Below, one piece after another: positions 533-25,190 of a stretch of DNA of 64,000 nt. The stretch covers positions 64,001 to 128,000 of the IMG/VR virus record IMGVR_UViG_3300045988_176782; one strand, given 5' to 3'. The stretch's first letter is position 1. Each line of letters starts with the position of its first letter. Position numbers and translations under genes: made by a program. Source of the DNA: a virus. The notes beneath the pieces were generated by a model. It searched no databases, was not told the DNA's origin, and saw only the letters and a list, made by a program, of their open reading frames with translations.

Positions 533-782
533 TCGCACTCAACTCCTTAACTAAATTGATACACTCAAAAATAGTTTTTCTAAAATACTGATAATCCAAA
601 TATTTTAGTTCAGAGAGTTTTCCAATAAGAGGCCAATAATTGATTGTTTTATCAATTTTTTCTAGGCCATAAAGTTCCAAAAGAATCGTTTCTAAAAATT
701 TTTCCCAAGCCCCACCTTTTTCACGTTCACAAAGCAACCCATAAAGCCGCCCTTGAAGCTTATTGTAATAACCTTCAATCAT
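525..782 (-). CDS. small head-tail module protein, 85 aa
   Basis: Intact ORF in the track. Start overlaps the upstream stop (ATGA). Lies in the head operon. Confidence 0.55.
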   Translation of the reverse strand: MIEGYYNKLQGRLYGLLCEREKGGAWEKFLETILLELYGLEKIDKTINYWPLIGKLSELKYLDYQYFRKTIFECINLVKELSANE

Positions 783-1225
783 GTATTTTTACCTGCCAAT
801 TTACCAAAAATTTTATTTGGCTTATAGCGAATAGAGCGGTCATAACGGTCCAACAAAAACAAGCAATCATCCATACATTGGGCTTGGTCTTTGATGAGCT
901 TGTCGAGGAAATTGGCCTAACTGAAATCCTTTGTTGAATAAAGGTGCCGAATGTTATCCCACGTATTCACGCAACGAGATAACCATTCATATTTCATAAA
1001 AGAAGCAAGAATCTGAATCTCGTCATTAGTTAATGTTTCGTCAAAACTTTCTGCTTTAACATCATAATCTAAAGAAATATGTGGGTAACGAAAACGCATT
1101 ATCGCCGCATCAAGCAGCATCTTCCAATCTTTTTTCACTATGTCCCAGTATTCTGTGGCCATCCAGTCATCGGTTTCAACTTTGGATAAGAACACATCAT
1201 ATACATCTTGAAAAGAGGTAGCCAT
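779..1225 (-). CDS. head-tail connector/adaptor-like protein, 148 aa
   Basis: ORF 917..1225 continues in frame through TAG at 917-919 to TGA at 779-781. Located just downstream of the capsid genes. The adaptor-like call rests on position and size only. Confidence 0.5.
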
Positions 1226-1238
1226 AGAGCTTCACCCC

Positions 1239-1688
1239 TTACTTAATAGACATACGAACGGCTTCTAAACAATCAAAACCTAAATATTGCTTTAGAGCAT
1301 TGCTGCGGCCAAGATCTGTAATCTTTAGCTCACGAGCGGTTTCAATAAACTCGTCTTTTAGTGCAGGAGATAAGTCCTTGCCCTTAAGAACAGTAATTAA
1401 ATCCTTAACAGGAGCTTCAGTTAATAAATACTTTACATTAACATCTGCGCTAGTTTTAGCAGTGGGCTTTACACTAATTTGAGCCTTAAGTTCAGCATCT
1501 TCAGTAATAACTTGCAAAAAACCGTCCTTAATAAAAGCCTGACAGCCAGGGTCGTAATTGAATTCTTCAAATACATCTTCCGGCAGTGCAGTTTCTTGCT
1601 TTGGCATCAAATCGCGACGGAAACGCACATTAGGTAAATTAATACCAATTACAAATGTGCTTAAATTCTTAACTTTAACTTTACCCAT
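1239..1688 (-). CDS. hypothetical head-module protein, 149 aa
   Basis: Intact ORF between the capsid and connector genes, ends in TAA. Confidence 0.5.
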   Translation of the reverse strand: MGKVKVKNLSTFVIGINLPNVRFRRDLMPKQETALPEDVFEEFNYDPGCQAFIKDGFLQVITEDAELKAQISVKPTAKTSADVNVKYLLTEAPVKDLITVLKGKDLSPALKDEFIETARELKITDLGRSNALKQYLGFDCLEAVRMSIK

Positions 1689-1756
1689 TATCTTTACTCC
1701 TTTTACTCATATGGAGGGAGGCCGACTCGCGGCCTCCCGCGAATTTATCTTAATCA

Positions 1757-2803
1757 TTAGGGATTTAGAATCTTATCGTTATCCCAACCGCCATCTTCAA
1801 TGGCGCTATTGTAATAAATGCCCCAGTAATAAGGCTCAGTTACAATAGCCATACCTAGCTTTTTGTAGAATTGAACTTCGGTGCTCCAATCCTTATTGTC
1901 AACATAACGCATATGGGAGTCACCAACCATAGCAATCTTAACAATCTTTTCCTTGCCAGCAGGAATTACATAAGCAAAGCGAGGATTGAAAATCATATGA
2001 GAGTTGGTTTCATCAGTGAAGCTATTAGGCATTACTACGATAGAAGCACCAGCAAATTTGCCAATATAGCCATTTTCACGGACTTCATCTGCATCACGGT
2101 CAGAAACCTTCCAATAATGCACGCCATCAGTCATAACATTGGACATTTGAGCAGCAAATTCATGACCACAATAAATAACAGGAGTGCCGTAAGCACTTAC
2201 AACAGAAATTAACTTAGACATCTTTGCAGCATCAAAGCCATTAGAAGCAGCCTTGTTTGCGCCAGGACGACCAGCATCATTCCAAGTAGCAAGTAGCATA
2301 CCTTGAATTTCTTGATAAATACGCTCGGCGAGACCATCAAGAATAATGTCATAAATTTCAAGAATATTTTCGTCACCATCAAGATAACGTTCAAAGTCCA
2401 TAATACCAGCGGCGCCGTAAGCAACTGGAGTTACTTCAAATTGCTCTTGATCAAGACGGAAAGTCTCATAGACACCAGCTGCGGTAGCACGAGTTACATA
2501 TTGCTTGCCACGTTCGCGGCCTTTCTTCTTCTTGAAGATTAGGCGGTCCTTGTTGCCAAATTGCTTTACTTCGGCAAACATACCAATTAAATCAATAACC
2601 TTACGAGGGAGAATTTCCTCAGCGGTTTGCTCTAGAATTTCAAATACTTCGGGGGCATTACGCTCAAATTGGTGACGAGTGCCCATTAGACGCTTTAGCT
2701 CATCACGAAGAGCTGCATCATAATCAATAGACTGATTCTCAAACTCGGTGGGGATATTTACACCACGAGCGCAATCTAATAGTTGCTTTAAGTTATTTTC
2801 CAT
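1757..2803 (-). CDS. major capsid protein (HK97-fold-like)
   Basis: 348 aa ORF directly after scaffold and accessory genes, with an SD upstream. Size, position and sequence character are typical of Caudoviricetes MCPs. No search was possible. Confidence 0.7.
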   Translation of the reverse strand: MENNLKQLLDCARGVNIPTEFENQSIDYDAALRDELKRLMGTRHQFERNAPEVFEILEQTAEEILPRKVIDLIGMFAEVKQFGNKDRLIFKKKKGRERGKQYVTRATAAGVYETFRLDQEQFEVTPVAYGAAGIMDFERYLDGDENILEIYDIILDGLAERIYQEIQGMLLATWNDAGRPGANKAASNGFDAAKMSKLISVVSAYGTPVIYCGHEFAAQMSNVMTDGVHYWKVSDRDADEVRENGYIGKFAGASIVVMPNSFTDETNSHMIFNPRFAYVIPAGKEKIVKIAMVGDSHMRYVDNKDWSTEVQFYKKLGMAIVTEPYYWGIYYNSAIEDGGWDNDKILNP

Positions 2804-2822
2804 AATCTTATACCTCCAACTA

Positions 2823-3362
2823 TTAAGCTTCTAAGATGGTGTACTTAATCGCCTTTTCGCCGTTAGGAACAGTAGTATACTTTACTACCTGGCCATAAGC
2901 ACCGGAAGTGGGCTTAGTGGCGGTTACCTTGGGACGGCCATCACCAGCTACGGGTACAACATATAGAGGAGTAGTATCAAGAGCCTTCATAGCTTCTTCA
3001 AAAGTCTTTAAGTTGGCAAAATCACCCATATCAAAGCAGTTAGTGGTGAAAATGTCGCCAGAGTGTAGAATACCTACACGGGGATAAGCGCCAGCTACAT
3101 CAAAATGCTCTTTTAAACCATATACATAGCGGCCCCATTCCTTTTCAGTGGTGTAAACGATACCATATTGTACAGTATCAGCAGCAGGTAGCTTAATTTC
3201 TTGATTAGCAATATTAGCGTCTACCCACATACCGTTCTCACAAGGAGCAGCGGCAGTAAATTCATCAGACAGAGGAGTCTGAGAACGAACTAAACCATTC
3301 TTTAGATATGCCGCACGATTCATTTCTAGGCTGGCATACTTAGAAAGTGGAAACTTAGCCAT
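2823..3362 (-). CDS. capsid accessory/decoration-like protein, 179 aa
   Basis: Intact ORF between the scaffold and MCP genes with GGAGG upstream. Function is inferred from position only. Confidence 0.4.
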   Translation of the reverse strand: MAKFPLSKYASLEMNRAAYLKNGLVRSQTPLSDEFTAAAPCENGMWVDANIANQEIKLPAADTVQYGIVYTTEKEWGRYVYGLKEHFDVAGAYPRVGILHSGDIFTTNCFDMGDFANLKTFEEAMKALDTTPLYVVPVAGDGRPKVTATKPTSGAYGQVVKYTTVPNGEKAIKYTILEA

Positions 3363-4691: not shown

Positions 4692-6248
4692 TTAGGTAGC
4701 CCCGTCGATATTTTCATTAGTGCGGTCTGCACGCTCTTCAATACTCTTCGTAGGACGGCCACCTTCATTAGATAAGTTGGGAGTAGAAGTAGTCTTATTA
4801 GGAGTTTTTTCATTATTTTTAGAATTTTTATCGTTGGAACTTTGAGTATAACTATTATTTAATGGCACGAGTTTTTGGTCTAACTTCGCGGTCTTATTTT
4901 CATAATCAGAAAGTTCCATTAAATCTATAGCATCTAAGCCAAGTGCGCTACTAACCATTGTTTTTGGATAGCCATATTGCGCCGCTTTGAGATACATATC
5001 TACACTATCTTTTTGAAAGATTGTAGAAATTGGTAGAAACTTAATAGTGCAATAATTATTTTCAGATTTTGTGCGGTTGCGCAAAACCACATTCAACCAA
5101 ATCTCATACTACTTACTCCAAGAAAACATAATGGAAATATCTTTTTTAATAGAATAAGTAATCGCGGTGCTACCATTAGAAGAATTAAAGATTTGAGAAG
5201 TTATACCCATATCGTCATAAACGCTGGAAGTATATTTCTATAAACGACTTGTAGAGCTGTTCGCAGCGGAATCTGGTTCTTGTACGCTTTCCAAAGAAAT
5301 ATCTGCATAGGTTGTTAGAACATCAATTGTGTCGTTATCGCCTACCATATTGCAAACGCTTTGGTGCAATTCTTGCGCCTCTTCCAAAGAAAAAAGCAAT
5401 TCTCCTGTAGATTTGTCTACAGGTAATTTTTGGATTAGTAGTTTTTGTAGTTCATTTTTGTCGCGTTCTGCTTCTCTGTCACGGGCGCCCTAAAGGTCTG
5501 CAATAGCATCCATACCAGCAATAAGAGGAGGGACTCCTTCCTCATTAAACATAAAACACATCCCCCCTTCTACGGCGGGGATTTCAATCCAAAGTTCGCT
5601 CACTTTTTTCTTGCGATACAGAGCCTAAACATATTTTGGGAATAATTCTAAAATGCTTTTTCGTTCTGCCTCATCGTATGCGATATTATCAAAATAGGCC
5701 GCATTTAATTCAAGAACGGGCAAACCAAATTCATCATTAAACCTTGTGCGGCAATAGCGGACAGGCAACTAGTAGAAAATTGGTTGGTCTTTTTCTCCCA
5801 CTTTCATAAAGCCATAGTATATGCCTTCGCGTAAGATGACTTTATTAATTTTAGGCAAAAGCATCTCTAAATTCATAGATTTCAAGAATCTACAATTTTT
5901 GTTGTAAGTATTTTTTAAGTTTTTAGGCGCATTATCTAAATTATATTGCGGAATAACGATATAGTTATAAGTAAGTAATGTCGCCATATAGGCAATAATT
6001 CTATCATAAATACCGCTAAATCGCGCAAAGTAAAGTGATAATTGCCGAATAAGAGTTGGATTGCCAGAAGCAAGAATGTCATTAATTTCTTCTTTGGTAA
6101 AACCTTTTGTGGAAGTTGTACTATATACGCGGTTATACCTATCATTTAATGCACGTTCTGTTCTAGGCGCGCGATATGATGCCTTTTTTGCAAATTCAAT
6201 AAAAGCATTAATATCGCGAGGTTGGGTGTTTTCTGGCAAATTAATCAC
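4692..6248 (-). CDS. portal protein, 518 aa with TAG read as sense
   Basis: Track fragments 4692..5096 and 5769..6248 are in the same frame. I translated the gap by hand and it contains only TAG interruptions (e.g. 5109-5111, 5625-5627, 5769-5771). GTG start with GAAGG upstream. Located next to terminase. Confidence 0.75.
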
Positions 6249-6985
6249 CTGCCTTCTTTTTACTTGATGAGAAGAATGTCATTGCGCCAACACCAGTTCG
6301 TTTTTTGTTGCGACGGGTTTCTTTATCTTCGTATTCTTTAATGCGATAAAGTCCATAGGCTAGAGCAGAAACACGGTCTTTGTTTATACGTCTAGAAATC
6401 TATTCTACTGCTAACTGGTTAGCAGCGCCAGTGGGACGCAATTTTAGGTTATTAATCTCATCTATAAGTCGCGAGGTCATTATGTATGGTAAGAGGAATT
6501 TTTCTCTCTAATATAAATTCATTCGTTGGCCTTTTTTGGTTGATAGTAATTTTTCACGTGCGATTCTTTCATTGGCTAAAAGCAAAACATTTCCACTGTT
6601 CATTTGGATATAAAAGTTAGAATATATTTCGTTGTTAAGGGCAGCGTTGGCTTTTATGTTGTAGATTTTTGCCTCAACTCCACGAGGATGGGGATAAGTG
6701 TCGGGGTCATTAGAAACATAAAGTGCGCCGTATTGTTGCCCTTTAGGGCCAATGGAGGGAATAACAAGTTGGTCAAGTAGACCAGTACCGATAGTGTTTG
6801 CGTCAATTACGATGTCGCGAGGATTAAAGAGCTCGTTAAGTTCTTTAATGCGTGCGGCTTGTTCGGGGAAGGACATTTTTGTTAGATTTTCAGTATAAAC
6901 TACTTTCTTCGTCCAACCGTCTTGAGAAGGCAGGACTTTTATAATCATTACAGAAGTATCATTATTTCCTGTACGTGCTACGTCT
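6241..6985 (-). CDS. terL: terminase large subunit, exon 3 (nuclease domain)
   Basis: Begins ..DVARTGNNDTSVMIIKV. Reads through TAG at 6508-6510 and 6400-6402 to TAA at 6241-6243. Joins exon 2 in frame (FYIISV|DVAR). Confidence 0.7.
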
Positions 6986-8233
6986 CATTATTATTTCGGT
7001 AAGGTCGCTACGCTTACCGCATGGAGCTTTACATCTCTGTAAAGATTAGACTATATTTTCATCTATGATAGATGTTTCTTCTTTCGGGCGGCAATCGCTT
7101 CCGTCCTACTCCACATTGGGATAGTCGTTGAACCAATTTTCTAATATTTGTTCTATTTTACGAAAATTTGTATATGAAATTATTAAATAATTATAACCTT
7201 GCTGTTTAGCTTCTCGTTCTTTTAAAATATCTCGTTCTTGGCGTTCAGCCAAAGGTAATTTAGATTCAAATTTGACAAACTCTTTGTAATGTTGCTCTCC
7301 ATGGTATTCTATAATTAAATTATATTCAGGTATATAAAAATCATATCTATATCGTGGATTAGATTGCCATTTAAAAGTTGCTTCTTTTTGGAAAGAAATT
7401 TTTTGCGAATCTAAGTAATCTACAATTTTCTTTTCGCCATGACTCATTTTATCTGAGCATCTTGGACAACCAGCATGGCCTGATAGCAAAGCGTGAGGAG
7501 AAATTTTTCTAATAAAACCACATTTATGTCTCATTAGAATTTTTGTATCCGTGCCTTGATATTCTTCTAAAGGTTCGTAGTCTTGTGGAATTAAAGAGCG
7601 AAATACAACATCATTCATATCATGATGAGATTCACAAAAAGGACAAGTTTGGGTTTTTAAATAATCTTGTTTGCTTTTTTCAAAGATTTGATTACATTTT
7701 TCACACAGGACTTTTACAGTTTCCTTTTGTGTGTGTTCGCGGTATCCCCAATCTATAAAAGTTTGATTGGGATTATTATTAATTAATTGTAAAATTTTTT
7801 CTTTATTTTGTTTTTGTATGGCTTTATAAGCCGTCCTGCCTAAGCACTCGCAAATTGCTTGTCCATTCCTAATAAAATTATAAAAAGAAGAGTAAGTTCG
7901 TCTTTCTCCACAAGTTAAGCATTTAATTGTAAAAGGCTTACTAACTTTAGTATATTCAATAATTTCATAAGGTTGATTAGGGAATTTATTATTAATTCTT
8001 TGTTTAATTTCATCAATGATAATAATTTTCATAAATAGAATACCTCCAAAATTGGTGCTGATTGCCCTTTTGTAGCATTTAGGTTTACACCATGTGCCTT
8101 TTTGTTATTTGTTTCTGCTTTCGCGGCGTCATTATATTGAGGTAGATATAATTAGCATAACAAAACTTTCGGGGTTCCCAGCTTTTAAAGAAATTTTAGC
8201 ATCTCTTGTCACCAAGAGAGTCGGCAGAATTTT
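6986..8233 (-). mobile_element. group I-like intron A in terL (about 1.25 kb, carries an endonuclease ORF)
   Basis: Interrupts the TerL reading frame. The 5' exon ends in T and the intron ends in G. Shares the blocks GCTGGGAACCCC, GCGAAAGCAGAAA, GGGCAATCAGCA and ATATAGTCTAATCT with introns B and C. Boundaries are inferred, +/- a few nt. Confidence 0.6.
7106..8032 (-). CDS. intron-encoded homing endonuclease, PD-(D/E)xK (Vsr/DUF559-like) C-domain with CxxC zinc-ribbon repeats
   Basis: 308 aa with its own GGAGG RBS. Has several C-x2-C pairs and a C-terminal YRYDFYIPEYNLIIEYHGEQH motif. It ends in TAG in the standard reading. Read-through would add 20 codons, to TAA at 7046-7048. Confidence 0.65.
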   Translation of the reverse strand: MKIIIIDEIKQRINNKFPNQPYEIIEYTKVSKPFTIKCLTCGERRTYSSFYNFIRNGQAICECLGRTAYKAIQKQNKEKILQLINNNPNQTFIDWGYREHTQKETVKVLCEKCNQIFEKSKQDYLKTQTCPFCESHHDMNDVVFRSLIPQDYEPLEEYQGTDTKILMRHKCGFIRKISPHALLSGHAGCPRCSDKMSHGEKKIVDYLDSQKISFQKEATFKWQSNPRYRYDFYIPEYNLIIEYHGEQHYKEFVKFESKLPLAERQERDILKEREAKQQGYNYLIISYTNFRKIEQILENWFNDYPNVE

Positions 8234-8373
8234 ACCGAAATGATATAGAACATTTTTGGATTGCTTGAGGATTTAGCTTTTCTTTCAGCGTTAAGAAGCT
8301 TACGGATTTTGATAAGACGGTTAGAATTAAACCAGCTATCAGAATTACTACCTGTCCAAATTGACTGCGATTC
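8234..8373 (-). CDS. terL: terminase large subunit, exon 2 (140 nt)
   Basis: Translates ESQSIWTGSNSDSWFNSNRLIKIRKLLNAERKAKSSSNPKMFYIISV between the two introns. Its frame links exon 1 (..DSFAR) to exon 3. Confidence 0.55.
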
Positions 8374-9635
8374 CTTTATTTTTTTTCATATAAATTCGCT
8401 ATATTTATATCTGTTTTTACAGCTTATATTTTCATATAAGATAAGACTATATCTTCACCCTAAAATATTTAGGGGTTCGGCGTTAGAGCGCTTGCTCATT
8501 TAGTCGTTGAGCTAATAAGTCAGAATTTAATAATGTTTCATCATTATATGGTATTTTAATTAAAATAATATCATTATTTTTACAGTATTCAGCTTTATCT
8601 TTATCACATTGTTGCTGTTTAAGAAAAGCTTGCTCACCACCAAACCATTTAACAGGTTGGTAATGCTGGATGCCATTATATTCAATAGCATATTTCTTAT
8701 TGCTTTTTTCTAAATAGAAATCAAAGCGTAATACACGATGCTCACCACAAGGAATGATTTTTTGTTCTTCAAAAATAAAATTATATTTTTGTAAATATTC
8801 TCGTACTTTTCGTTCCCCTTTACTTGCCCTACAACGAGGGCATCCAGTGCGTTCCTTTAGAAAATGATAACAATCTACTTCCCAAATAAAACCACATTGG
8901 TTATGACGTACTTTAAAACGTCTTTGATGTTTAGAATTATGAGTGGTAGGTGCAACTCGGGTGTATTCATTGCCCCATGTTTGTTCAATACGATAATCAA
9001 TCATTTCATCGTTTAATAAAGCAAAGTTAGCTTCGCACCAAGGGCATTTTGTTCCTTCTTCTGTATAAGATACAGCAAAGGGCGCCCGAGAAAATGTATG
9101 CCCACATTTTCTACATTGCCAGTCTATTTTTTCTTTCCATGACCAACGGATGTCTTCAATTGCGAAATCTAATGGAATTAAAGAACTATTTTTAATAATT
9201 TCCATTCGTTGCTTTTGCAAGCCAGTTCTGCCAGCAGTTTCACATTTATTACAAATATCTAAATTACCACGTTTAGCCCGCTTCTTAAAATTACTGGCCA
9301 CTTTAAAAGTGAAATGAGAACCACATTTATTACAAACAATTTCACATGGATTTTCTGTACCATTAAAAGTTACAAAATCAAAATCAGATGTGGGTAAAGC
9401 TTCTTGTAAAATATCATGATATTCTTGTTGAGTATATTTCATATTAAATCCTCCTTATTAGTTGCTGATTGCCCATTAGCAAGCCCTTAGCGTTGCCGCT
9501 TAGGCTCATCCAAAAACTTATTTCTGCTTTCGCTCCGTCATAATTTAAGGTAAATTATTGTGGCATTTTGGCTTTAGGGGTTTCCAGCAGTTAACCGAAT
9601 TCTATAACTATATTACTATAGTTTCGCGCAAATCT
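8374..9635 (-). mobile_element. group I-like intron B in terL (about 1.26 kb, carries an endonuclease ORF)
   Basis: Homologous to intron A at both ends, with the same conserved blocks. The 5' exon ends in T and the intron ends in G. Boundaries are inferred. Confidence 0.6.
8483..9442 (-). CDS. intron-encoded homing endonuclease, paralog of 7106..8032
   Basis: 319 aa with AAGGAGG RBS. Has CxxC repeats and a C-terminal LRFDFYLEKSNKKYAIEYNGIQH motif. Ends in TAA. Confidence 0.65.
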   Translation of the reverse strand: MKYTQQEYHDILQEALPTSDFDFVTFNGTENPCEIVCNKCGSHFTFKVASNFKKRAKRGNLDICNKCETAGRTGLQKQRMEIIKNSSLIPLDFAIEDIRWSWKEKIDWQCRKCGHTFSRAPFAVSYTEEGTKCPWCEANFALLNDEMIDYRIEQTWGNEYTRVAPTTHNSKHQRRFKVRHNQCGFIWEVDCYHFLKERTGCPRCRASKGERKVREYLQKYNFIFEEQKIIPCGEHRVLRFDFYLEKSNKKYAIEYNGIQHYQPVKWFGGEQAFLKQQQCDKDKAEYCKNNDIILIKIPYNDETLLNSDLLAQRLNEQAL

Positions 9636-10517
9636 ACGTGCAAAGCTGTCCATATCAAAAGTCGCGCTCATTCGCTGTTCATTAAGAAACTTCTTATTAA
9701 GCAAACCATAATGCACAGGTAACTCATATGAACTGCCACAGACAAAATAATCGTCTGGGTCAATTACTTCATTAACTACTAGTTCAATTAATTTTTCATA
9801 AGCAAAGGTAGTTTTGCTACCCGCACTAGTAATATAAATTTGTTGGGCGTGAGGTTCGTCCGCATTCACGAAACCATTTACTTGAGGCCTAGGTACATTC
9901 ATCATGGGGATTATTACCTCATTCAGCAAAGTCCCATCTATCAAGGCAGCTTCCTCAACTACGCCACCCGTTGCACGCTAGCCACGACTTGAAGCAGAAA
10001 GAGCAAGAACGTGGAAAATGGAACCATTCTTAAATTTCATTTCAATATAATCGGTGCTTTGCTTTAAATATTCAAGCTCGTTTTTAAGTAGCGGCCACCA
10101 ACGAAAGATTTCTTCTATTTTTTGTTTTGCAATATCCAAAGATGCTTTTTTGTATTGAGAAACCAAAAAGCGCTTACTATTGGGTAGAAATATGCAAGAC
10201 AAGATTTGAGAGAGTATAGCAATGAAAGACTTTGAAGTTGCGCGTGTGAATGACCCGAAGAAGTATCTGTATCGCGCGCACGCTCGCAACATAACCCTCT
10301 GATAATACATTAATTTAATTGGACAATCGCGGCTTGAAATCATATCTAAAAAAAGGTCAGGGTAAAGCCGCCACTTCTCACAATAATATTGGATTAGGTC
10401 TTCATTCTATTCTACCCATCGTTCATCAAGCACAACACCTTTTTCTACTGGTATGCCGTCTCGTAGAACATTACCATTAACACGGAAGCTGTCAATTGGA
10501 TTAGTTAATTGCGTCAT
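9636..10517 (-). CDS. terL: terminase large subunit, exon 1 (ATPase domain)
   Basis: The ATG at 10517 overlaps the upstream gene end. Track fragments 9978..10343 and 9591..9944 are in frame with it and are joined by TAGs (9978-9980 and about 10400). Contains a Walker-A-like TRATSKSF. The tail of the track ORF (RFARNYSNIVIEFG*) is intron read-through. Confidence 0.7.
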
Positions 10518-10872
10518 CGTCATCATCCTCCAGGTCCATAGTATCTTCATATTCTATGGAACGAAGAGTTTCTTCTTCGGTGTCGGTATCTTCGTAGCTG
10601 CCGGTTTGTTCTAAGCGGTCAGCCAATTCAAGTTGCTTGCGGCGGTCTTCAACCTAATCGCCAATGCTACTTTCATTTTGCACCAAACGCTTAAGATGGT
10701 CTTGGATACATTTTATAGTAAAGTCTGCACTATCTTGCGGCTCAGTATGCCAATTCATCTTTTTGCCGCGTTTCTCCAAGTAAGTGAATAATTCACCTAC
10801 ACTGTCAAAATCGCCGGTTGATTTGCTGTTTTTCGGTTCAAAACCTTCAGCTTTGATAATATTATGATACAT
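10501..10872 (-). CDS. small-terminase-like protein, exon 2
   Basis: Track ORF 10654..10875 continues through TAG at 10654-10656 to TAA at 10501-10503. Acidic C-terminus. Overlaps the terL start. Confidence 0.5.
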
Positions 10873-11083
10873 CATAAAATTTAAAAGAGTTCGCTAAGCT
10901 CTTCCCATGGGGCTGCATATTACTATGCAGATTAGACTATATCATCACCTTGCGGTGTTTCCCGTTTCAGCCCGCTTGGGCTTACGCCTTTCGGCTAGTC
11001 GTTGAACGTCCCTTATAAAAATAAGGTTTCGCTGCTGATTGACCATTGTTGTATGGTGTTCCCAGCAATTAGAGAAATTTTAC
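10873..11083 (-). mobile_element. ORF-less group I-like intron C (about 211 nt)
   Basis: Contains the same blocks as introns A and B (AAAATTTCTCTAATTGCTGGGAACACC, AATCAGCAGCGAAAC, GATATAGTCTAATCT plus a hairpin, and an AAATTTTATG end). Removing it joins two in-frame coding segments. Confidence 0.5.
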
Positions 11084-11689
11084 ATGGACGTGTATCAGTT
11101 CATCCATTTCTTTTTTAGCGTCTTGACCACTACGGATTTTCTTATTAATTAAGAGTCCGACCTCGCACAGTCTCTTGGCATCGTCGCGCTAAGTTGCTGT
11201 TACAAGGTTTTGCGTAGCAAGTAAATCATTATATAAATCTTCCAAATAATGATAATCTTCAACTGTTCTTTCAATTTCGGCGGGCCATTTTCGTTGCATT
11301 CTTAGCATAAAGGCTTCATCTGCGCCATCTAAAAAGTCGCCTAATGTTCCAAAACTTTCCTCTTCCTTCCACTTCTCATTCATTGTTTCCCAATCAACAG
11401 ATTGGTAAGTTGGATTTTCACTAATTTGTTTGGCGTAAAGGTGAAGTGTGCGCTCTTTTCCGGAGCGTGCTAACTTCGTCCAAAGCTCCACACTAAATGG
11501 CCAGTCAAGCCACTACATCAACTTATTAACTGCGGCCAGGTCATCGTATGGAACCATACGCTCCAAACAATCAGTACAAAAGAGGCTTGTGCCCGCGACT
11601 TGGAAGGGGCTTTTGGTTTTTAGATATTCGGTTTGGGTTTTTTCTATCTTGCATTTTGGGCAGCGTCTTGTTTTTTCTATTCCTGCCAT
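11084..11689 (-). CDS. small-terminase-like protein, exon 1 (N-terminal zinc ribbon)
   Basis: GGAGG then ATG at 11689. Begins MAGIEKTRRCPKCK..LFCTDC. Reads through two TAGs (about 11500 and 11189-11191). The terS call rests on position immediately upstream of terL. Confidence 0.5.
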
Positions 11690-13005
11690 TATTGAGTTTC
11701 CTCCTATTTTTTACAGTTTGCTTCTTTGCGTTGGCGCCGCATTTTTTGGCACACCTTACACTATACACAATAACCGGTTTTGGTCGCTTTGTTGCGTCCA
11801 TAATAGAGTTCGTGAAGTGGTTTAAGTTGTCCGCAACAAGTGCACCGTTGGAGAGGAATTTTTTTTGTTTCTGTATCGCTTTGTATCCGCAAAATAGTGG
11901 CGGTTTTAGCGATTTTTTGAGGAATTACTTTTTTCATTAGATTAGAAACTTGCTAATCAGATAAACAAAAACCTTCTTCAATTAAAATTTTTTGAATTAA
12001 TGCTATACTGCGGTGTGCAACACGTTGGCGCAATAGGAAGGTTTCAAGGTCGGTTAATTTCGTATTTTCAATAAGGCGTTCTAAGTCCCAACAAATCATT
12101 CGTGTGGTGCTGTCAGGGTGGGGATAAGAGCGCTTTAAGAGAGAAACATAATTATCAAGTAGGGCGATGATGTGTTCGTAATTTTCGTAATTTAATTTAT
12201 TGTCGGAAATCTTCCAATACATTTTAGAAGCAGAGTTGCGTTCTGCGTCCTCATAGGAAGGTTGCTCGGTGTCGTAGGGTTTTGGTTTGCGTTTGCGGAC
12301 GCACCATTCTTCTTCCTCAAGCCATAGGCCGGTGTTGCTTTCAAAATCAACTGGGCCTTTGGTTGGCGGCGCAATATTAAAGAAATGGAGGGTTGGATTA
12401 TATGAATCTTTAATGTAGTATTGTTGGCGGCGCAAATCAATTAAAAGATGTTGCATTTTATACAACTAATACTTCGTAATGGGGTGCGCCCTTACCCATT
12501 CGTCAGGCGGAATTTTGCCTCTATACATATCATAATGCAAAGAAATGCGGTCAATAGATTTCCAAAGTTCCCTCATAAAAGGTATTTCGTTTCCTTCATT
12601 GTCAAAGTCGTCGCCATATTCTAAAATGTTGCCGTTTTCATCGTATTTGGTGCGGCGAATTTCCTACTTAAAAACTTTGTAGGGGGATTTGTTTTCGGGG
12701 GAGACGGGTTTGGCGTTGTTTTCTATGTCTTGCGCCACAACCGGGTCTTCCAGGAGCGTGTCAAGGGATTCAGTTTCTTCGGCTTTGGTTTGGAAACTGC
12801 TGTAGCGGCGTTTAGGTTGGAGGATTTCTTTGGTGTCAACTACACTTAGATTTTGGTCGTCTTTGCCGTAGAGGATGTAATCCGCCATTTGCTCCAGGTC
12901 GGTGTGATTTGGGGTTTGGGGTAACTCATCCAATATTTCTGCTATGGCATCTATGCGGTCATAGGTTGAATATATATCGTAGTTTAAACTGTAAGCTTTT
13001 TTCAT
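11689..13005 (-). CDS. putative late transcription regulator (sigma region-4-like HTH, C-terminal zinc ribbon), 438 aa if all TAGs are read through
   Basis: ATG at 13005 with AAAGGTGA RBS. Track ORFs 12664..13293 (from internal Met) and 11953..12465 plus an 82-codon CxxC ORF are all in one frame, joined by TAGs (12664-6, 12466-8, 11953-5 and two more). The LTDLETFLLRQRVAHRSIALIQKIL segment resembles an HTH. Confidence 0.45.
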
Positions 13006-13099
13006 AGGGTCACCTTTTTTATTTTTCCCGGAAAGTATATCCGGGGTTAGGTTTGTTTTTTTGTTGTAGAGAAATTTGACTTCTTTTCTTTTTTGTTTT

Positions 13100-13128
13100 A
13101 TTTTAGAATAAAATTTTTGTTTTGTCAA
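13100..13128 (-). promoter_or_regulatory. sigma-A-type promoter for the minus-strand regulator gene
   Basis: On the minus strand: TTGACA, 17 nt spacer, TAAAAT. Confidence 0.5.
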
Positions 13129-13217
13129 ATTTTTTGATAGGAGAAAGGGAAGAGAGTGGAAGAAGAAAACGAAAAATGAGTTCTGGCGGGAATTGACCAG
13201 ACCCGGCGTGTCTGGGC

Positions 13218-13295
13218 ATTTGTCGTTTTTGGCCTCCCCGAAACCATACCCGCCATTGCCACATGTGGGAATGATAGCGGCCAAAAACGACAAAT
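13218..13295. repeat. perfect 17-bp inverted repeat with 44-nt GC-rich loop
   Basis: ATTTGTCGTTTTTGGCC (13218-13234) is the exact reverse complement of GGCCAAAAACGACAAAT (13279-13295). Confidence 0.85.
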
Positions 13296-13305
13296 TCGCT
13301 TATTT

Positions 13306-13360
13306 TTTTTGTTCATAGTTTGTTTACAGTTTGTTCATAGTTTGTTTACAGTTTGTTCAT
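13306..13360 (+). repeat. five phased 11-bp GTTTGTT repeats (a 22-bp unit twice, plus one)
   Basis: AGTTTGTTTACAGTTTGTTCAT occurs twice in tandem (13317-13338 and 13339-13360), preceded by TTTGTTCAT. Confidence 0.85.
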
Positions 13361-13369
13361 AAAAAACTA

Positions 13370-13398
13370 TTGCATTATTCTGCCGTTTATGATAATAT
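13370..13398 (+). promoter_or_regulatory. early promoter (TTGCAT, 17 nt, TG-n-TAATAT)
   Basis: The hexamers and the 17-nt spacer were read directly. Followed by a roughly 180-nt leader with hairpins before the ATG at 13580. Confidence 0.55.
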
Positions 13399-13579
13399 AT
13401 AACCGTGCTCAAAAGAAAGCACAAGCCGGGAACGGAAACTAACGGGAACGGCTTGCAATTTGAAAACTAAATAGCCGGAACCCTTGTATGTTGAGCGAGT
13501 GCCTAGAAGTAGGTGAAACACTTGCGAGGAAAACAGACAAGGCAAGCGGAAACATAAAAAAAGAAAGAAGGTTTTCACA

Positions 13580-24677: not shown

Positions 24678-24765
24678 GGCGATGTGATGCAATAGGCGAG
24701 ACATAGCGCACTCAAAATGCGCCACATTAGAAACATTGTCGGTTCGAATCCGACCATCGCCACCA
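24678..24765 (+). tRNA. class-II-like tRNA, anticodon CAA (Leu), encoded CCA
   Basis: Hand fold: 7-bp acceptor GGCGATG/CATCGCC, T-arm GTCGG-TTCGAAT-CCGAC, anticodon arm GCGCA-CTCAAAA-TGCGC and a 3-bp D stem. The 15-nt variable region pairs poorly, which is atypical. Confidence 0.6.
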
Positions 24766-25035
24766 AATGCCTTATGTGTTGGCGGCAGTTACATTAAAAG
24801 AACACTTCGGTTTATCCCCTCCGGAAGTGGGGTACATCCTGACCAAAAACTATCCGGGTTCAACTCCCGGCCTGCCTACGGGCGGGGCGTAGGTTGCATA
24901 GTGAGTAAGGTGGAGAAAGATAGGAATAAGTATCTACGCCAATAGATTTACTGTTCTGACCGCTTTCAGGGATGGACGTACCTTGGCGGGTACGTTTTCA
25001 AGGGAGAAAGGTGCGCAACTTTCTCTCATTCTTTT
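24766..25035 (+). ncRNA. unassigned structured spacer between tRNAs (several strong hairpins, one T-arm-like motif)
   Basis: Contains CCGGG-TTCAACT-CCCGG (24854-70), CACTTCGG..CCGGAAGTG, GGCGTAG..CTACGCC, ACGTACC..GGTACGT and GAGAAAG..CTTTCTC. I could not build a complete cloverleaf or find a CUA/UCA/UUA anticodon loop. Confidence 0.3.
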
Positions 25036-25111
25036 CGGTCATTAACTCAGTTGGTAGAGTATCGCACTTTTAATGCGAGAGTCATGCGTTCAAGTCGCAT
25101 ATGACCGACCA
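25036..25111 (+). tRNA. tRNA-Lys (anticodon TTT), encoded CCA
   Basis: Hand fold: acceptor CGGTCAT/ATGACCG, D-arm ACTC-AGTTGGTA-GAGT, anticodon arm TCGCA-CTTTTAA-TGCGA and T-arm ATGCG-TTCAAGT-CGCAT. Confidence 0.85.
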
Positions 25112-25114
25112 TTT

Positions 25115-25190
25115 CGGAATAAGGTGATGTGGTTCGTTGCAACTGGCTTATATCCAGCGATTCGGGGTTCGATTCCTCGTATTCCGACCA
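25115..25190 (+). tRNA. tRNA-Ile-like (anticodon TAT), encoded CCA
   Basis: Hand fold: acceptor CGGAATA/TATTCCG, T-arm CGGGG-TTCGATT-CCTCG and anticodon loop CTTATAT on a 4-bp stem plus an A-C mismatch. The D stem has two G-U pairs. Confidence 0.65.

Follow-up and report, generated by a model that had tools for sequence, protein, structure and literature searches.

The large terminase gene (terL) of a 64,000-nucleotide (nt) stretch of viral DNA (IMG/VR record IMGVR_UViG_3300045988_176782, positions 64,001 to 128,000; the window) was found in three pieces on the minus strand, separated by two inserts that each carry an endonuclease gene. We put the probability that both inserts are endonuclease-bearing group I introns splitting terL at about 93%, and we infer that they are mobile, are spliced out of the terL transcript, and encode enzymes that cleave intron-less alleles. 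As in characterised phage group I introns, each insert would be transcribed within the terL pre-mRNA, fold into a ribozyme core, and excise itself by guanosine-initiated two-step transesterification. Exons 1, 2, and 3 would thereby be joined into an mRNA for a normal large terminase (TerL) of 588 amino acids. The gene in the P6 loop of each intron, with its own Shine-Dalgarno sequence, would supply the homing endonuclease. During a mixed infection this enzyme may cut the intron-less terL of a related phage near the insertion site, and repair from the intron-bearing copy would then carry the intron and short flanking exon stretches into the cut allele. An earlier note on this DNA had described a split terL with two endonuclease-bearing inserts, and this observation was confirmed to single-base resolution.

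The terL exons and their junctions

Exon 1 (9636..10517, minus strand) had 882 nt or 294 codons, encoded the ATPase domain, and contained two in-frame TAG codons, taken as Gln. Exon 2 (8234..8373, minus strand) was only 140 nt long, giving 46 codons plus 2 nt. Exon 3 (6241..6985, minus strand; 745 nt) encoded the nuclease domain, with two in-frame TAG codons and a TAA stop. The summed length (882 + 140 + 745 nt) is a multiple of three, and the joined exons formed a single 588-codon TerL frame with four TAG codons, no frameshift, and no premature TAA or TGA. The in-frame joining proposed earlier was thus borne out with exact coordinates. The residues at the junctions were MDSFAR|ESQSIW and FYIISV|DVARTG, the second of which splits a Val codon as GT|A.

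The junctions were located by comparison with L002 and L001, two related genomes in which the three exon pieces are exactly contiguous. The 9636|8373 junction corresponds to L002 3708|3709 and the 8234|6985 junction to L002 3848|3849. Exon 1 was collinear with the uninterrupted TerL of L002 and L001 up to the base preceding intron 1, and its terminal SFAR was invariant among TerL homologues, including that of Geobacillus virus E3. Exon 2 was collinear with L002 3709-3848 and starts with ESQSIWTG, also invariant in the homologues, and exon 3 was collinear with L002 from 3849 and starts with (V)DVAR, the conserved first acidic motif of the nuclease domain. Both junctions therefore lie inside motifs (SFAR|E..SIW.G and YI..V|DVAR) that were invariant, without any indel, in six TerLs, Geobacillus virus E3 among them. 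If each intron must follow a U and finish with a G, the boundary bases permit one register only. The alignment with intron-less homologues, which the earlier note had named as a check, hence gave contiguous pieces and restored conserved motifs, and it established both the boundaries and the recovery of an intact TerL.

Protein searches gave the same picture. Two uninterrupted proteins of 588 amino acids in a metagenome protein collection (P0001 and P0002) were ~100% identical to the spliced TerL over the full length, and about twenty further uninterrupted metagenome proteins were 97-99% identical. The spliced TerL matched the profiles phrog_2 (E 1e-23, residues 66-564), phrog_26582 (over 256-565), and phrog_5909 (over 282-412), and all three matches run across both junctions. 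The best annotated match by tblastn was Geobacillus virus E3, with 42% identity, an E value of 2e-116, and 89% coverage. Pfam Terminase_6C was detected on residues 339-414 with 21.3 bits, slightly below its cutoff of 22.6.

The pieces did not look like independent genes. Exons 2 and 3 had neither a start codon nor a ribosome-binding site at the 5' end, and exon 3 begins in the middle of a Val codon. The exon 1 frame entering intron 1 stopped after 14 codons, at a UAA in J3/4 (9593..9591, minus strand), and the exon 2 frame entering intron 2 stopped after 8 codons, at a UGA in the P2 loop (8211..8209, minus strand). Ribosomes continuing from exon 1 would cross P1, P2, and the P3 5' strand before stopping. 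Gene callers reported terL as three or four separate open reading frames (ORFs).

The ribozyme core of the inserts and its family

Intron 1 (8374..9635, minus strand) was 1262 nt long, with a 5' ribozyme half at 9635..9454 and a 3' half at 8519..8374. Intron 2 (6986..8233, minus strand) was 1248 nt long, with the two halves at 8233..8048 and 7140..6986. In intron 1 the 5' half held the internal guide sequence, P2, P3, P4, P5 with its extension, and the P6 5' strand, and the 3' half held P6', J6/7, P7, P7.2, P3', P8, P7', P9, P9.1, P9.2, and the terminal G. Each intron follows directly after an exon U (T in the DNA) and its last base is G, in agreement with the earlier description of inserts of about 1.25 kb placed after a T and ending in G. 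The conserved non-coding blocks described for both inserts were also present. GCGAAAGCAGAAA and GGGCAATCAGCA were identical in the two, and GCTGGGAACCCC and ATATAGTCTAATCT differed by one base in intron 1.

The core helices were placed with a hand-built model and the pairings were checked by script. P2, P3, P4, P5 with a three-way extension, P7, P7.2, P8, P9, and P9.1/9.2 all paired in both introns. P6, which closes the ORF loop, showed 8/8 pairs in each (CUAAUAAG/CUUAUUAG in intron 1 and CCAAUUUU/AAAAUUGG in intron 2); the two P6 stems were unlike at most positions, still perfectly paired. P1 of intron 2 (UCGGU/GCCGA) had 5/5 pairs with a U.G at the splice site, and P10 of intron 1 was a 5 bp helix (GAUUU/GAAUC). 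The P3 pairing bridges ~1.1 kb in both introns. P5 was extended and P7.1/P7.2 was placed between P7 and P3', which is the arrangement of subgroup IA, and both introns appear to be IA-like. After deletion of the ORF, the minimum free energy fold of intron 1 recovered P2, P3, P4, P5, P6, P8, and P9 (z = -4.8), and that of intron 2 recovered most helices (z = -3.5). None of 100 shuffles was as stable as the native ORF-deleted fold for either intron. With the Rfam group I model RF00028 at a relaxed threshold, the 3' half of intron 1 scored 43.2 bits (E 9e-9) and that of intron 2 scored 30.3 bits (E 6e-5), and UUCAACGACUA and GAUAUAGUCU agreed with the model consensus.

The family motif GCGAAAGCAGAAA-N(30-60)-GGGCAATCAGCA was found at 77 viral-contig loci. 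Twenty of these were scanned with Rfam, and 17 gave full-length RF00028 introns with 71-102 bits. In L003, L021, and L032, the matches whose coordinates were compared, the Rfam match encloses the motif. Twelve matches were taken as relatives; they were 306-381 nt each, too short for an endonuclease ORF. The ORF-deleted introns 1 and 2 aligned with the ORF-less relatives from P3 to P9. As the MAFFT alignment was out of register, in intron 1 at P3'/P8 and in both introns at P5a, pairing of P3, P8, and P9 was measured by an anchor-based script instead. For P3, the six bases upstream of J3/4 were compared with the six bases immediately before P8. P3 was paired at 6/6 positions in 13/13 family members, introns 1 and 2 included, with 13 distinct strand sequences, and strands swapped between members reached 6/6 in only 7.7% of combinations. 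The P8 and P9 stems also varied among the family sequences yet paired. This covariation, together with the intact core, is strong evidence for a group I fold of both inserts.

The ribozyme cores of introns 1 and 2 were 61% identical to each other, and their identity with family members on unrelated contigs was 54-65%. As the two cores were no closer to each other than to members on unrelated contigs, they point to two separate invasions by one intron family. The sequences thus indicate that introns 1 and 2 are diverged members of a single widespread phage intron family. Recent duplication of one intron was rejected on the same core comparison and on the 26% identity of the two endonucleases. 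When the locus was searched in full by blastn in 50,697 phage records, no close relative appeared, and the matches were short (70-180 nt) and confined to parts of the endonucleases and of the intron core. An unrelated viral contig, L065 (IMG/VR UViG_3300028591_001959, 765-3292), carried two tandem introns of this family, each with a gene like that of endonuclease A (36% and 51% identity).

The endonucleases and the TAG stop of endonuclease A

Homing endonuclease gene B (8483..9442, minus strand) lies in the P6 loop of intron 1 and encodes 319 amino acids up to a TAA stop. Homing endonuclease gene A (7106..8032, minus strand) lies in the P6 loop of intron 2 and encodes 308 amino acids up to a TAG at 7108..7106. 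A GGAGG sequence precedes both ORFs, 7 nt upstream of the ATG for endonuclease B. Both proteins matched phrog_559 over nearly the full length (E 1.9e-47 for A and 1.3e-50 for B), and both also matched families labelled 'homing endonuclease' and 'intron encoded nuclease'. For endonuclease B these were phrog_9084 'homing endonuclease' (E 1e-27) and phrog_7140 'intron encoded nuclease'. The Pfam matches of the two were limited to DUF723 and zinc-ribbon modules, with DUF723 in endonuclease A and a Zn-ribbon plus DUF723 in endonuclease B. The two proteins shared 26% identity (E 5e-23).

HMMER searches of the PDB with endonuclease B and with a 41-sequence profile gave no match for the nuclease domain, only zinc-ribbon noise, and the fold was therefore assigned from an AlphaFold prediction and its Foldseek comparison. 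With 41 homologues as input, AlphaFold modelled endonuclease A at a predicted local distance difference test (pLDDT) score of 89. The top PDB matches of this model in Foldseek were 1VSR and 1CW0 (E. coli Vsr) and 3R3P_B, with a probability of 1.0 each; for 3R3P_B, the catalytic domain of I-Bth0305I, the template modelling score (TM) was 0.72 on target. Residues E200, D231, E242, H248, and D268 (endonuclease A numbering) were invariant or at least 90% conserved in the 41 homologues, both window proteins included. Compared by order alone, they follow the active-site residues E170, D196, N208, H213, and D222 of I-Bth0305I (PMC3239194). We read both endonucleases as having an N-terminal zinc-ribbon/DUF723 part and a C-terminal Vsr-like EDxHD domain resembling that of I-Bth0305I, the fold being that modelled for endonuclease A, with which endonuclease B aligns. 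PHROG labels family 559 as 'HNH', but a VSR signature has been reported for it (PMC11878797). The earlier note's free-standing PD-(D/E)xK/zinc-ribbon endonuclease with its own Shine-Dalgarno sequence in each insert was right at the superfamily level, through the Vsr-like fold, and the label is refined here to the EDxHD/Vsr-like homing-endonuclease family.

TAG is frequent as a sense codon in this phage, with 76 in-frame TAG per 17,168 codons of the long ORFs of the window. At TerL codon 297 (8367..8365) the window has CAG where L080 and L081 have TAG, an alternation that points to Gln as the meaning of TAG. No CUA anticodon was present among the three tRNAs of the window. When TAG is read as Gln, endonuclease A gains 20 codons up to the UAA (TAA at 7048..7046) in AUAUAGUCUAAUCU and reaches 328 amino acids, so the earlier estimate of a tail of 20 residues ending at 7046-7048 was correct. 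Gene callers give 328 amino acids for P0121, a copy of endonuclease A with 97% identity, and the TAG with its 20-codon tail was kept in a second recoded genome, L082.

The stop codon has to be seen together with the RNA around it. The 3' ends of both endonuclease ORFs pass through P6', J6/7, and P7, and that of endonuclease B also through P7.2. Endonuclease A owes its C-terminal WFNDYP to translation of GGUUCAACGACUAUCC in the ribozyme core, and the conserved WFNDY(P/S) of its family is encoded by GG UUC AAC GAC UAU CC. More distant endonuclease relatives translate the same core in another frame as GSTTI. The UAG itself lies within the conserved ribozyme element GGAGUAGG, at the junction of P7.1 and P7.2, and was found at the homologous position in 8/11 ORF-less relatives, so the RNA structure alone would hold a TAG there. 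Several homologues of the enzyme likewise stop here, after FNDYxxx(E/K), and for at least one (L065) the stop codon is TAG.

The earlier note had taken the TAG stop as a fit with arrival from a standard-code genome. A recent import of intron 2 from a standard-code phage would agree with the homologous endonucleases that stop at the same position, with the scattering of the intron family over many unrelated viral contigs, and with the lack of internal TAG in either endonuclease ORF against four in TerL. This last difference was not significant (zero in 627 codons, with ~2.8 expected at 76/17,168; P ~0.06). The presence of the UAG in GGAGUAGG of ORF-less relatives, and its retention with the tail in recoded L082, where the gene is called at 328 amino acids, also argue against recent import. 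The statement that endonuclease A is the only ORF in the window ending in TAG was not confirmed, as at least seven other long ORFs had an in-frame TAG 5-21 codons before a TAA or TGA end. We therefore regard recent import as possible but rather doubtful. RNA constraint together with family history explains the stop, which alone is a weak indication and no proof of a recent standard-code arrival. The one mildly unusual point is that the stop of endonuclease A is a reassigned codon fixed by the ribozyme.

A more speculative role, which we consider improbable, is that of a code-state sensor, in which the UAG stop, locked by the ribozyme, would couple the form of the endonuclease, the splicing of terL, or both to the code switch of the phage. 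Before the suppressor is active, ribosomes would halt at the UAG and release the 308-residue enzyme. Later, read-through would continue for 20 codons via P7.2, P3', P8, and P7', giving a tailed protein and unfolding the catalytic core on those unspliced terL transcripts that are being translated.

Allele series, competing readings and genome context

ENA contig ERZ27229731:k119_200862 (167 kb) matched the window at 100% identity along the 9 kb that were compared. Relatives with 88-97% identity in the terL region differed in their intron content, which established a presence/absence polymorphism. Both introns were present in the window and in L084, and neither terL intron in L001, L002, and L080. 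L082 and L083 carried intron 2 only, at the same site as the window. L001, L002, L080, and L082 lack intron 1 and have its flanking exons joined without a gap. L081 had neither intron 1 nor intron 2 and carried a different ORF-less RF00028 intron (72 bits, 2044-2340) ~15 nt downstream of the intron 1 site. In this L081 intron the junction predicted from P1/P10 would bring back S-I-W-T-G and leave A as the last intron base; taking the nearest G as the end loses the invariant Ile-Trp.

The exon sequences next to the introns followed intron content. Both intron-2-bearing genomes shared the flanks ATTTCGGT|AGACGTAGCACGTACAGGAAATAAT, from about -8 to +24, and all intron-2-less alleles differed from them. 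The intron-1-bearing allele had CGT| at the site against AGA| in all others, a synonymous change that provides the U and the P1 pairing. Intron-linked flanks are the pattern expected of homing with co-conversion, and they could alternatively come from selection for P1 pairing and endonuclease resistance.

Several results weigh against functional introns. P1 of intron 1 (..CGU|/GCG..) was weak, with 6/8 pairs and two internal mismatches. Both introns missed the RF00028 gathering score of 50 bits and their 5' halves were not detected alone by this model; at the curated threshold, Rfam reported neither terL insert at the locus, only a nearby ORF-less intron (93.6 bits). The Rfam search that the earlier note had named as a check thus detected both 3' halves, as given above, below the accepted score. 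The shortfall is plausibly due to the ORF of 0.93-0.96 kb in P6. As the endonuclease ORFs enter the ribozyme core at P6', J6/7, and P7, translation of the enzymes and folding of the ribozyme must be apart in time or take place on different molecules. A scan for sigma-70 promoters gave 22 sites against 18.1 ± 4.2 in shuffled sequence, which is no enrichment, and a terminator scan likewise showed none over shuffled sequence.

The sub-threshold Rfam scores and the weak P1 of intron 1 would also suit decayed, non-splicing remnants, in which case terL would be a pseudogene and the phage lineage defective or dying out. We find this very unlikely, because all core helices were intact, with P3, P6, P8, and P9 perfectly paired, and both endonuclease ORFs were full length and retained every family-invariant residue. 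The exons likewise showed no frameshift or premature TAA/TGA, and intron 2 was found at the same site in L082, L083, and L084, independent assemblies whose identity to the window was 96.7-100% where they aligned. Still less credible is a 'fractured gene', in which TerL fragments with free-standing endonuclease genes between them would be translated one by one and assemble with no splicing of RNA, since against the separate ORFs of the gene callers stand the missing start signals of exons 2 (46 codons) and 3, the start of exon 3 inside a codon, the exon frames that stop 14 and 8 codons into the introns, the complete ribozyme core around each endonuclease ORF, and boundaries that fall exactly at U| and G|. 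An intein was dropped because the ORFs were out of frame with the exons and flanked by stop codons, and a group II intron because there was no reverse transcriptase and no domain V. The proposal of group I-like introns in terL is supported by the intron-less alleles, the ribozyme core, and the covariation.

Every element of this system has a described precedent, so the result is well supported but ordinary, and what is new is the lineage, an SPbeta-like, TAG-recoded phage from metagenomes. The td and nrdB introns of phage T4, with I-TevI and I-TevIII, are phage introns of the IA type with the endonuclease ORF in the P6 loop; they home with co-conversion of flanking exon, and the exon frame ends early inside the intron. 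The window introns share an IA-like type, the P6-loop ORF, and the early stop, and would share co-conversion. They differ in that the T4 enzymes are GIY-YIG or HNH endonucleases and the window enzymes belong to another family, with the ORF 3' end fused to the core and J6/7-P7 read as FNDY.

The closest likeness in host gene was found in Bastillevirinae (Moonbeamvirus, Nitunavirus, Caeruleovirus), where PHROG 559 endonucleases with a VSR signature occur in four terL introns and terL genes with two or three introns have been reported (PMC11878797). The host gene and the endonuclease family (phrog_559) are the same, and both systems have an endonuclease in a ribozyme loop that overlaps the core, an IA-like ribozyme, and multiple introns per gene. 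Unlike those phages, the window phage is SPbeta-like, metagenomic, and uses TAG as a sense codon. I-Bth0305I from the recA group I intron of Bacillus phage 0305phi8-36 (PDB 3R3P; PMC3239194) is also intron-encoded and shares the Vsr-like domain with endonuclease A. Its host gene is recA instead of terL, it has NUMOD/helix-turn-helix modules where the window endonucleases have DUF723 and several CxxC zinc ribbons at the N-terminus, and there was no sequence match at the HMMER level. In alternatively coded phages, terminase genes fragmented by mobile introns have been described, together with an endonuclease, encoded in an intron, whose production could be tied to the recoding state (Borges et al., preprint, 10.1101/2021.08.26.457843). 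That endonuclease ORF contains recoded codons, for which a block on early translation was proposed, whereas neither window ORF has an internal TAG and TAG occurs only as the stop of endonuclease A.

Our understanding of group I introns is unchanged by these results. They extend the zinc-ribbon/Vsr-like (PHROG 559) type of terL intron beyond Bacillus myoviruses, and they add an endonuclease family in which the ribozyme core determines the C-terminal peptide WFNDYP. The exact junctions give the correct TerL of 588 amino acids for phylogeny and annotation of the SPbeta-like recoded lineage, which is of practical value as gene callers split terL and extend endonuclease A past its stop. The allele series, which runs from intron-less through intron 2 alone to both introns and includes the L081 allele with another intron 15 nt away, could together with its linked flanks serve for studies of homing and co-conversion among uncultured phages.

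The gene set of the phage was SPbeta-like (YonG, YonB, YomU, YomV, YomW), and its TerL was ~34-42% identical to TerLs of cultured Bacillales phages; the lineage is an SPbeta-like, TAG-recoded gut phage known from metagenomes. A cluster of three tRNAs was located at 24678..25190 (plus strand), namely Leu-CAA (88 nt, long variable arm), Lys-UUU, and Ile-UAU (weak in Rfam, 36 bits). The lineage is also rich in introns. A third group I intron (10873..11101, minus strand), ORF-less and 229 nt long, lies in a yonG-like gene immediately upstream of terL, with exons at 11689..11102 and 10872..10501 that together give 319 amino acids and with AUGGAU/GUCCAU as P1. The Rfam match to it (11156-10913, 93.6 bits) is shifted, covering ~54 nt of exon and leaving the last 40 intron nt uncovered. 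This intron was absent from L081 and L082 and held an ORF of 255 amino acids in L080. Beyond the window end, two further RF00028 introns (76 and 74 bits) adjoin YomU-like tail-tube genes in L002, at 12857-13183 and 13245-13470.

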